NCBI GenBank assembly: GCA_964449585.1
Contig: CAYUZE010000001.1
Span: forward strand, 42,836 to 106,835
Direction of reading: 5' to 3'
Length of the DNA: 64,000 nt
From: an uncultured Gammaproteobacteria bacterium
GTDB lineage: Bacteria; Patescibacteriota; Microgenomatia; UBA10105; UBA927
Made by a program: the position numbers. Below, piece after piece: positions 1 to 3,000 of the stretch. The number at the start of each line of letters is the position of its first letter. The stretch's first letter is position 1.

Positions 1-3000
1 GATTAACTCCATGAAGACATTCTATCGTTTCTTAAAGACGTCCGGTACGATCAGCCAGGATCCCGCAACCGATATCGAACACCCCAAATATGAAGTCAAA
101 CCGCCGCGTATTCTATCTAAACTCGAATACCGCGCACTTCGTGACGCGTGTCGCGGCGACGTTCGCACCTATGCCATCGTCGAACTCTTTTTGCAAACGG
201 GACTCCGTATCGGAGAGCTTGCAAATTTGGCAACAAGCGATGTCAAAGATACCGAACTGCACATTGCGGCTCAAGAAGGTCATGAAGAACGCTCCGTTCC
301 GCTCAACCGTGCCGCGAAAGAAGCCCTCGATAACTGGCTGAAGGCACGAAATAGCGAAGCAAAGTCTTCTTCCCTCTTTATCACCAAAACAGGACGACCT
401 CTTCTTATTCGCAATATCCGCACCGCAATTGACCGATATTTCAAAGTGGCAGGTATTGAAGATGCGAAAGTAAATGATCTTCGCCACACGTTTATCGCTC
501 ACCATCTTATGGCGGGAACGGCACTTACCACGATTAGTAAATTGGTGGGTCACAAACGACTTTCTACGACGGAAAAATATCTTGAGTTTATCTCCGACAA
601 GCACACCGAACGGGTGAAACTGGAAGAGCTATAATCTCTTTCCGCCACGTTTGTTTATTTACTCCCTCAGGTTTTTGACACTAAGCATTGCTATCCGTTA
701 TAATTGATATGAAAAGCGCCCGAGTCTGACCAGTCATCAGACAAGCTGCATTGACCAACGGATAGCCCAGTAATCAATGCCGGAACCGCCCGTTATCGCG
801 TTACGAGAAGCAAATAAGGTGGTACCACGAACACCCGTTCGTCCTTATACTGAAGGAGAGCGGGCTTTTTTATGGACAAAAACTTTGATCCGAAAACGTG
901 TGAAGATGCCATCTACCGTACGTGGGAATCCGGAGGCTACTTTGTGCCCAAAGACGATCCCACCGCTCCCCCTTTTACCATTATCATGCCGCCGCCCAAT
1001 GCCAATGATCCGTTGCATATCGGGCATGCGATGTTTATCACCATCGAAGACATCCTTATCCGTTACCACCGTATGAAAGGGGATAGCACACTTTGGCTTC
1101 CCGGTACCGATCACGCGGGCATTGAGACACAGTTTGTCTTTGAAAAGAAATTGGCCAAACAGGACAAAAGCCGCTTTAATTTTGACCGCGAAACGCTCTA
1201 CAAAATGATCTGGGATTACGTTCAGGAAAACTCCGGAGTTGCCGTCAATCAGATGAAAAAACTCGGTGCTTCCGCAGACTGGACCAAATTCAAGTTCACG
1301 CTTGATCCTGATGTTGTGGCGAAGGTTTTGGAAACATTTATCGCCCTCCACACCGACGGCCTCATTTATCGCGGACAGAAGCTCGTTAATTATTGCACCA
1401 AATGCGGTACCGGATACTCGGAGCTTGAGGTGGAGCATACCGAAGAAACAACAAAGCTCTATTACATAAAATACGGTCCCTTTGTTTTGGCAACAACCCG
1501 GCCGGAAACCAAGTTCGCCGATACGGCAGTCGCCGTACATCCCAAGGACAAACGATACAAGAAATATATCGGTCAGGAAATCACGGTGGACGGACTTTTA
1601 GGCTCATTTACTCTGAAGGTAATCGGAGATGAGTATGTCGACCCCGAGTTCGGCACGGGAGTGGTGAAAATCACTCCCTTTCACGACTTTAATGACTTTG
1701 ACGTATGGCAACGGCATATCGATGAAATACCGGCTCCCAAGCAGGTAATAAACAAACAAGGCAGACTCACTGAAATTGCAGGCAAATACGCCGGCATGAA
1801 GATAAAAGCTGCTCGTGAGCTTATCGAAAAGGATCTTGACGCCGCTCGCCTACTGGCGAAACCGAGCGAGTCGTATACCCACACGGTGGGCACCTGTTAT
1901 CGCTGCAAGACAGTGTTAGAGCCACTCCCGCTTACCCAGTTTTTTATTAAGACAAAACCGTTAGTTGATGGGGCACTGAAAGCCCTTGATGCCGGAGAAA
2001 CAAAAGTTTTGGGAGCAGGACAGGACAAAATTTTACGCCATTGGCTTACCAATATCCGTGATTGGAACATAAGCCGACAGATTGTCTGGGGTATTCGCAT
2101 CCCGGTCTGGTATAACGTGAAAGGGCATGAACCATACGTTTGGCTCAGTTTTCTGGATGGAGAAATGAAACAACAACAAGGAACCCTTCAACAATGGATG
2201 GGCAAATATGACATTGCGCACATTAAATCAAACATCCAACAGATAGATACAAGTTATGCAAAAAATATTGACTGGAGAGTAAGCGTTGAGGAACCAAAAG
2301 AAGAAGGCACTTGGATTCAAGAAACGGACACATTTGACACCTGGTTTTCATCAGGACAATGGCCGGTCGTCACCCTACAAGCTAATGGTGATGATGTGTT
2401 TACCCGGTACTACCCTACCGATGTCATGGAAACAGGCTACGATATTCTCCCGATTTGGGTCATGCGTATGATGTTGCTCGGTATCTATGTCACGAAAAAA
2501 ACACCGTTCCGCACTGTGTATCTTCACGGACTTGTTCGTGATGAAAAAGGACAAAAGATGAGCAAATCCAAAGGAAACGTGATAAATCCGCTCGACATGG
2601 TAGATAAATACGGTGCGGATGCTATTCGGATCGCGCTTGTCATGAGCTCGACTCCCGGACAGGATAAGGCGGTGGGCGAAAACACCATTCGCGGCATGCG
2701 CAATTTTTCCAATAAGGTATGGAATGCCGCACGCTATATTGCTCTTGAAAGACAGACTATTCACTCTACGGAAACACAAGACTATTCAGGGGATAAACAG
2801 TTCATGCAGAAACTGAAAGAAGTGACGGAATGTGTCACCCAACTTTTAGAAACCTATCGTGTCGGACTTGCGGCGGAAACGGTACACAACGAATTTTGGC
2901 ATTGGTATTGCGACGTCGCCATCGAACAACACAAAAAAGGAGAGATTTCGCATGCTGCCCTTGAAACGGGTCTTCACACATTTCTCGCGTTACTTCATCC

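Follow-up and report, generated by a model that had tools for sequence, protein, structure and literature searches.

The window analysed here is a 64,000-nucleotide stretch of contig CAYUZE010000001.1 (assembly GCA_964449585.1), deposited as an uncultured Gammaproteobacteria bacterium; it comes from an ultrasmall bacterium with the GTDB lineage Patescibacteriota (Microgenomatia; UBA10105; UBA927). Near its start, on the forward strand at 872-3091, lies valS, the gene for valyl-tRNA synthetase (ValRS), preceded by a leader that is very probably a working T-box riboswitch, which would respond to tRNA-Val with anticodon GAC and control this gene. The 739-aa protein matches Pfam tRNA-synt_1 and Anticodon_1, and its homologues in the candidate phyla radiation (CPR, or Patescibacteria) are named valine--tRNA ligase. 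Its nearest relatives are Patescibacteria proteins, with Candidatus Gottesmanbacteria genomes at the top of the list (80-83% amino-acid identity). The C-terminus falls inside the anticodon-binding domain; no C-terminal coiled-coil domain was detected in the window ValRS, nor is one listed for its CPR homologues, which have 670-780 aa. Gene order around the locus is conserved, with DivIC, a tyrosine recombinase, valS, an unannotated gene and NAGPA following one another, and two independent assemblies carry the leader in identical form.

Transcription is predicted to begin from a sigma-70 promoter at 675-704 on the forward strand, in which TTGACA (675-680) and TATAAT (699-704) are separated by an 18-nt spacer. 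This is the only site with a 12/12 consensus match between 500 and 1100, and likewise in the 60 kb scanned (1-60000). The predicted transcription start near 711 gives a leader of about 161 nt that ends at the ATG at 872, in keeping with the strong promoter and roughly 160-nt leader described in the first-pass annotation of this DNA. The same perfect promoter is shared with the related loci L161, L170, L001 and L081, and in all 20 leaders parsed the -10 box ends 6-14 nt 5' of Stem I.

Related leaders were collected from 160 valS loci fetched from genomes and metagenomes (handles beginning with L), and look-ups of close homologues added further loci. About 21 of the 160 CPR valS loci carry a T-box leader; with the added homologues there are about 24 distinct leaders, each before an orthologous valS. 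They form two main subtypes. Subtype A, Gottesmanbacteria-like and including the window, has Stem II and a Stem IIA/F-box element, and usually lacks Stem III. Subtype B, from Collierbacteria, Woesebacteria and others, comprises leaders directly upstream of valS at L017, L019, L020, L022, L031, L034, L073, L110 and L120. It has a canonical kink-turn (K-turn) and a Stem II in which AAGAAA lies opposite AGUAGAA, and it lacks the F-box, the pseudoknot and Stem III; L120 carries an extra small hairpin in place of the F-box/IIA/IIB region.

A whole-window Rfam scan at gathering thresholds returned no matches. In a sensitive scan, the T-box model RF00230 aligned to 710-849 with 50.4 bits and an E-value of 2.1e-10 when computed for the region, or 4.4e-8 over the whole window. 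The alignment spans model positions 1-219, that is, the entire model, with 70 distal Stem I positions reduced to 3 nt and 19 Stem III positions to 4 nt. The covariance-model check proposed at first pass therefore returned a significant full-length match, though a sub-gathering one. Related leaders score 36.6-44.8 bits or go undetected. No second T-box was found in the window by Rfam at E <= 0.01, and the T-box core motif occurs there at chance frequency, its sole other exact match (30087) being coding. Folding is more stable than in shuffled sequences for the whole leader (z -3.7) and for the 3' domain (z -3.0), and unconstrained folding of 711-812 yields the specifier hairpin, Stem II and Stem IIA. 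A long-range helix joining 712-722 to 861-871 in the minimum-free-energy fold of the full leader was set aside as fortuitous; it is unconserved in relatives and clashes with the K-turn.

The hallmarks of a T-box follow one another in the correct order: a K-turn-like GA, a specifier with a downstream purine, an AGUA S-turn, a CCGUUA F-box, a purine string and a UGGUACC bulge. Stem I is ultrashort, occupying only 33 nt (715-747, forward strand). Its C-stem pairs 715-717 with 745-747, and above it a 6-bp specifier stem joins GUCUGA (724-729) to UCAGAC (737-742) under the 7-nt apical loop CCAGUCA (730-736). The valine codon GUC sits at 733-735 and is followed by the purine A736, so the codon-displaying hairpin singled out at first pass is indeed found at 724-742. 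Among more than 20 orthologous leaders, the loops read CCAGUCA, CUAGUCA, CUUGUCA, UUUGUCA or UUAGUCA; no triplet other than GUC stays constant, and valS is the gene in every case. A single Stem I template, running GC, 3-4 nt, G(U)A, a stem of 5-6 bp, a loop of 7 nt (NNNGUC(A/C)), the return stem, RA and GC, fits all 20 parsed leaders. At the base, the sequence pattern indicates a K-turn-like motif, with a bulge at 718-721 and G722 A723 opposite A743 A744. The pattern GC-(3-4 nt)-GA...RA-GC recurs in 20/20 leaders and takes the canonical GA/GA form in subtype B and most of subtype A. In the Rfam alignment, the elbow-binding double T-loop platform of distal Stem I is absent from the window leader.

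Stem II follows at 748-780 on the same strand and emerges from the Rfam alignment, covariation and folding alike. Its lower 7-bp helix pairs 748-754 with 774-780, and a short apical helix pairs 760-761 with 766-767. Between them lie the S-turn strands CCAAC (755-759) and CAGUAA (768-773), the latter containing an AGUA (769-772) that aligns with the Rfam consensus AGUA. The presence of GUC together with this S-turn fits the "C rule" for the third specifier base, a rule that has been attributed to G34 being read by the S-turn of Stem II (PMC7583486). Stem IIA (781-783 with 790-792) and the F-box-like CCGUUA (790-795) align with the Rfam pattern CGG..CCGUUA. A putative pseudoknot helix IIB would join 787-789 to 798-800 within the region 781-800. 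Stem IIA and two IIB pairs are invariant. At the third IIB position, 5 of 11 leaders have a CG, UA or AU pair and the other six have none; judged from sequence, a IIA/IIB pseudoknot in the window leader is plausible. In place of Stem III, the forward strand has a purine-rich linker (801-813) with GAGAAG at 805-810 and AAA at 812-814. The Stem III helix is absent from the window, and a Stem III hairpin (CCGCC-GGCU-GGCGG) is retained only in L002/L083.

The switch domain contains the T-box sequence AAGGTGGTACCACG at 816-829, confirming the consensus-like sequence seen at first pass. The antiterminator, AAGG-UGGUACC-ACGAAC...GUUCGU-CCUU, spans 814-848 on the forward strand and folds with -10.1 kcal/mol. 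Helix A1 (814-819/843-848) and helix A2 (827-832/837-842, closed by the loop 833-836) flank a 7-nt UGGNACC bulge, here UGGUACC (820-826), which is invariant among the leaders compared. The ACGAAC/GTTCGT helix first put forward as the antiterminator does pair, but it accounts for helix A2 and not for the whole structure. Competing with it is a predicted intrinsic terminator at 834-871 (forward strand). Its 12-bp hairpin pairs 834-840 and 842-846 with 853-864, leaving G841 bulged and a loop at 847-852; the hairpin at 834-864 has -16.6 kcal/mol and is followed by C865 and a U6 tract (866-871) abutting the ATG. It shares 834-846 with the antiterminator and excludes both A2 and the 3' strand of A1. 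Over the 3' domain, the terminator fold reaches -19.5 kcal/mol against -10.1 for the antiterminator, so the two mutually exclusive structures suggested for a folding check both exist, with energies typical of T-boxes. The means given by TBDB are -19.5 kcal/mol for terminators and -7.4 for antiterminators, and the subtype A values lie within its ranges. The terminator fold is the more stable one in every subtype A leader (about -17 to -25 versus -10 to -16 kcal/mol). Subtype B terminators are very strong (-21 to -27 kcal/mol) and lie well upstream of the ATG. The 3' arm of the window hairpin also holds a Shine-Dalgarno (SD)-like sequence, AAGGAG (853-858, forward strand), 13 nt before the ATG.

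Comparative analysis shows that these helices are maintained by compensatory change. In a MAFFT alignment of 11 subtype A leaders, which was not hand-fitted, in-register pairs were counted in Stem I, IIA, IIB, A1 and A2: 94.4% of cells are paired versus 27-47% with slid partners, and there are nine compensatory pairs, a number equalled in 0 of 500 shuffles. A second alignment of 20 leaders from both subtypes was registered by hand and padded with N, and MAFFT left it ungapped. It gives 97.6% paired cells versus 30-45% when slid, compensatory change at 18 of 24 pairs and a covariation score of 0.61 versus 0.21 shuffled, values that the hand-fitting biases towards the tested structure. A joint covariance model of both subtypes was dropped because MAFFT misplaced the Stem I 3' strand in subtype B. 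All six pairs of the specifier stem show compensatory change, as do five of the six pairs of helix A2 within subtype A, and both A1 and A2 covary between subtypes. The lower helix of Stem II is 100% paired across lineages, with compensation at six of its seven pairs; its variants include GCAUUGA/UCAAUGC, UUCAAC/GUUGAA, UCCG/CGGA, UCUG/CAGA, CCUGAU/AUCAGG, GGG/CCC, UGAGG/CCUCA and UGGAG/CUCCA. Compared with its counterpart in L161, the window leader differs by two substitutions in 157 nt (98.7% identity), neither of them at a paired position; identity is lower in valS (88.1%) and lower still in the spacer upstream of the promoter (78%).

In every defining feature tested save the curated Rfam score, the valS leader is a member of the T-box family. 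The match to RF00230 (E 2e-10), the invariance of GUC and the covariation together support the original proposal of a valS T-box with a GUC specifier. We infer that the leader binds tRNA, senses its charge and terminates transcription, along the following lines. Transcription would start about 4 nt 5' of Stem I, and the K-turn and short hairpin would display GUC-A in the apical loop. The Stem II S-turn, placed by the IIA/IIB element, would clamp the codon-anticodon duplex and stand in for the elbow platform, as in the Class III T-boxes discussed below. When tRNA-Val is uncharged, its 3'-ACCA would pair with UGGU (820-823) and stabilise the weaker A1-bulge-A2 antiterminator, so that polymerase enters valS. 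The UGGU bulge would fit a tRNA ending in A73-CCA, as the GUC specifier would match a GAC anticodon. With charged tRNA or none, the more stable 12-bp hairpin would form and, together with U6, terminate transcription just before the start codon. In refolded full-length RNA, this hairpin would cover positions -38 to -8 of the ribosome landing zone, AAGGAG included, and may act as a secondary translational brake.

Several observations weigh against this reading. The leader's 50.4 bits fall short of the RF00230 gathering score of 93, because distal Stem I (about 70 nt) and Stem III (19 positions) are deleted. The K-turn pattern in the window is GA/AA with a 4-nt bulge, so that its second position is A-A and not A-G. 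The 5' strand of the S-turn reads CAA in the window, not GAA as in several relatives, and the pseudoknot helix IIB lacks decisive covariation. Taken alone, the 5' domain barely beats shuffles in folding (z -1.35). ARAGORN found no tRNA-Val gene in the window or the 160 related loci, and no tRNA gene at all in the window; other contigs with the identical ValRS gene span just 3-4 kb. Transcriptional T-boxes generally need a long Stem I with the elbow-binding IDTM, a pair of interdigitated T-loops, for fast tRNA capture (PMC7583486). Both the IDTM and Stem III, which is part of the charge-sensing discriminator, are missing from the window leader.

If the element is functional, its sequence makes transcription termination the probable main output. 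A hairpin followed by U5-U8 is present in 19 of 21 related leaders. The SD-like core is variable: the window, L161 and L170 have AAGGAG at 13 nt, L080/L005 have AGGAGG at 7 nt, L029 has GGAGG at 10 nt, and L002, L003, L036, L163, L166 and L167 have none. Attenuation is likely the main output because the hairpin and U-run are near-universal and the SD-like AAGGAG is not. The terminal hairpin with U6 touching the ATG, as first annotated, is present, but the SD sequestration ascribed to it is unconserved in the family, and SD sites are rare in this genome. Occlusion of the ribosome landing zone is possible as a secondary effect, and the U-tract of subtype A leaders may also serve, after antitermination, as an unstructured landing site.

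The alternative that survives best, though it is unlikely, is a T-box acting on translation only, like that of actinobacterial ileS, with 834-864 as a sequestrator and U6 as a U-rich landing site for the ribosome or S1. Every described short-Stem-I T-box is translational (PMC7583486; PMC1262725), and AAGGAG does lie within the 3' arm of the hairpin. Some relatives also fit this alternative: L080/L005 carry AGGAGG at the ideal 7 nt, L029 carries GGAGG at 10 nt, and L004 has a sequestrator devoid of a U-run. The precise juxtaposition of U-run and ATG in most subtype A leaders hints at a link to initiation. Against it, six close relatives keep the hairpin and U7 yet have no SD-like core. In subtype B, the hairpin and U-run end 16-95 nt before the ATG, so the hairpin cannot mask the ribosome site. 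The window's own SD-like motif precedes the ATG by 13 nt. Of 50 long open reading frames (ORFs) in the window, with starts crudely assigned as the first ATG, only about 9 have any SD core (GGAG/GAGG/AGGA within 25 nt upstream).

Terminator scans bear on both sides of this question. A G+C-rich 12-bp hairpin followed by U6 is the canonical intrinsic-terminator signal, and the valS site is the strongest such hairpin plus T6 in the 64-kb window. A stricter hairpin-plus-T6 scan gave 12 sites versus 1-6 in shuffles, only two of them intergenic. The low-stringency scan is no richer than shuffles in this genome and is uninformative; this lack of enrichment is consistent with translational control and, with only one other clean intergenic terminator seen in the window, counts against termination as the output. 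That other site, the only other convincing intergenic one, is a hairpin, CCCGGTTAATCACCGGG, with T6 at 23635-23699 on the minus strand, the terminator of a gene ending at 23798. Directly after it comes TTGACA-18-TACTAT with a TG extension, the promoter of a gene starting at 23625. Many ATGs in the window lie 6-10 nt after a TAnAAT-like box, for instance CTGCTACAATGACCCC-ATG and GCGTATAATAGCCGTA-ATG (example starts in this survey: 13729, 15060, 18482, 19879 and the 36309 region). Together with the scarcity of SD-like cores, this spacing suggests that translation in this organism often begins on leaderless messages or independently of an SD site.

It is very improbable that the leader is a decaying relic, unresponsive to tRNA, whose hairpin and U6 form a constitutive attenuator or nothing at all. 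The IDTM and Stem III, deemed important in model T-boxes (PMC7583486), are missing, the close relatives L165, L169 and L171 have no leader, and the element is found at about 21 of 160 CPR valS loci. Decay is hard to reconcile with a leader better conserved than the coding sequence (98.7% versus 88.1%), with compensatory changes that preserve all helices between lineages sharing only about 50-60% ValRS identity, and with the invariant specifier triplet and UGGUACC bulge. An unrelievable terminator of -16.6 kcal/mol before an essential gene would also be harmful. A chance resemblance, a protein-binding leader or a leader-peptide attenuator could be argued from the sub-threshold Rfam score, a mini-ORF from ATG 709 to TGA 729 (MKSARV) with one Val codon and a weak L31-Corynebacteriaceae leader match (minus strand 663-725, 16.6 bits), but this explanation is effectively refuted by E 2e-10 across the full model, all motifs in order and strong covariation, and the L31 match is at chance level (E 0.76) and overlaps the promoter. 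The MKSARV mini-ORF would begin no later than the predicted transcription start, and its start codon is unconserved (GTG in L161, absent elsewhere), and leader-peptide attenuation was rejected.

Among known T-boxes, the closest counterparts are the Class III ileS leaders with ultrashort Stem I, reportedly described by Sherwood in 2015 from Nocardia farcinica, Mycobacterium tuberculosis and M. smegmatis. Class III ileS structures are available as PDB entries 6UFM and 6UFG. Four classes are distinguished: Class I has a long Stem I with elbow platform and Stem II, Class II (glyQS) lacks Stem II, Class III has a short Stem I with an apical specifier loop and requires Stem II (N. farcinica ileS), and Class IV has an intermediate Stem I (PMC10482949). 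The window leader shares with Class III a short Stem I devoid of an elbow platform, an apical specifier followed by a purine, a K-turn-like pattern at the base of Stem I, an AGUA-type Stem II S-turn, the A1-UGGNACC-A2 switch and an overall size near 150 nt. Both also have an F-box (in the window, within a putative IIA/IIB region), CCGUCA there and CCGUUA, CCGUCA or CCGUAA in CPR leaders, and both target a class I aminoacyl-tRNA synthetase for a branched-chain amino acid. [quoted passage not shown]

Several features set the two apart. Actinobacterial members read AUC before ileS, whereas the Patescibacteria leaders read GUC before valS. The apical loop has 5-6 nt in the known members (PMC10482949) versus 7 nt here. 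Stem III or A2 is often enlarged in actinobacterial members, and the Stem III helix is missing in the window. The IIA/IIB pseudoknot, essential in N. farcinica, is missing in subtype B leaders. In predicted output, the window element, which appears to be built like Class III, departs from that class: known members only sequester the SD sequence, and the original description of actinobacterial ileS T-boxes has sequestrators instead of terminators (PMC1262725), whereas the window has a hairpin and U-run, a predicted intrinsic terminator.

Class I leaders such as Bacillus subtilis tyrS and valS (RF00230) share the element order, the T-box sequence, a GUC specifier in line with the C rule at the third position, Stem II, the S-turn, the F-box and, putatively for the window, transcription attenuation as output. 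Compared with them, the window lacks Stem III and about 70 nt of distal Stem I, including the specifier internal loop, the S-turn above it, the AG bulge and the distal loop platform. Its specifier stands in a hairpin loop rather than an internal loop, and its U-tract abuts the start codon. Class II glyQS is likewise a reduced T-box, but it is glycine-specific and keeps the long Stem I and elbow platform, whereas the window keeps Stem II and loses the platform. Class II is mainly relevant to L004, where Stem I leads straight to the discriminator.

Some relatives show further departures from the common plan. L004:1820-1929 (Candidatus Amesbacteria) is a smaller valS T-box of about 105 nt, with a K-turn, an apical GUC hairpin and a 17-nt linker direct to the discriminator; it has no Stem II, pseudoknot, Stem III or U-run, and its hairpin masks AGGAGG 5 nt before the ATG. 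According to published work, a short Stem I binds tRNA poorly in the absence of Stem II. At L001:2837-3003 and L081:1837-2003, the base after the specifier is C (loop CCAGUCC), not the usual purine. Their terminator also differs, in that the T-box bulge, through its palindromic GGUACC, pairs with a second GGUACC located downstream, immediately before U7, sparing helix A2 and directly hiding the tRNA acceptor-binding bulge. A 25-nt palindromic repeat, GATTCCSGATCARGTCSGGAATGAC, is inserted in apical Stem II at L017:2822-2846 and L022:2780-2804, with another copy in L022 between terminator and ATG (2967-2991), and no copy was found in any other fetched locus. The repeat resembles a small hairpin element of a mobile or repeated kind.

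At L165:1463-1500 and L169:1481-1500, only 20-38 nt separate the recombinase stop from the valS ATG, and no T-box leader is present; a TACAAT box lies 7-8 nt before the ATG, and the ValRS proteins are 77-81% identical. The element is therefore patchy even within the clade. In these loci, valS is probably leaderless and free of tRNA regulation, providing natural "minus riboswitch" controls.

In Gottesmanbacteria relatives, tRNA genes whose anticodon is CAU (of the Met, fMet or Ile2 type) lie 1.6-2.7 kb upstream of valS (L001:238-307 and 1353-1424; L002:1355-1426; L003:285-354 and 1363-1434); the window begins inside the recombinase gene, and the equivalent region lies outside it. CPR-type ValRS of the same short architecture, 47-61% identical to the query, is encoded in many metagenome-assembled genome records titled "uncultured Pseudomonadales" or "uncultured Gammaproteobacteria" (L005, L007-L009, L012, L015-L017, L019, L023, L025, L032, L033, L037, L038, L040-L043, L046, L056, L059, L078 and L080). 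It also appears under the titles "Spirochaetia" (L058) and "Limnocylindrales" (L063). These record titles are probably placeholders or wrong taxonomic labels.

Earlier surveys concentrate on other lineages. The TBDB short-Stem-I model was built from ileS and run on Actinobacteria only, and the TBDB phylum discussion covers Firmicutes, Actinobacteria, Chloroflexi and Deinococcus-Thermus. An earlier T-box census lists no candidate phyla (PMC2494555), and according to a perspective from 2024, next to nothing is known of regulation in Patescibacteria (PMC11665869). The literature searched holds nothing that links a T-box with CPR, Patescibacteria, Saccharibacteria or Microgenomates, although cataloguing elsewhere is possible, and the combination of a short-Stem-I tRNA-binding design with a transcription terminator is undescribed there. 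It is proposed tentatively, with rather more doubt than confidence, that Patescibacteria hold an undescribed minimal T-box lineage acting by transcription termination, marked by an ultrashort Stem I, no elbow platform, usually no Stem III and one subtype devoid of IIA/IIB. With scores of 37-50 bits against a 93-bit threshold, such leaders are missed by Rfam annotation and TBDB-style surveys; a dedicated covariance model would probably find more.

The T-box principle itself is well established, and it is the short-Stem-I terminator design in CPR that is noteworthy to T-box specialists. Reviews pair the long Stem I and its platform with transcriptional control, where tRNA must be captured before the terminator, and the short Stem I with translational control, which has no time limit; the kinetic rationale for a long Stem I in transcriptional T-boxes is set out in PMC7583486. 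A conserved family that joins a short Stem I to a terminator offers a natural test of this argument. If the reading holds, contact with the tRNA elbow would not be generally required for co-transcriptional tRNA sensing, and an anticodon clamp made of Stem I and Stem II would be enough for a decision within about 100 nt of RNA synthesis. At about 110-150 nt, these leaders would be close to the smallest transcriptional T-boxes that structural and engineering studies could draw on. They would also extend T-boxes to a deep-branching, genome-reduced phylum and provide a concrete, testable example of amino-acid-responsive regulation in Patescibacteria.

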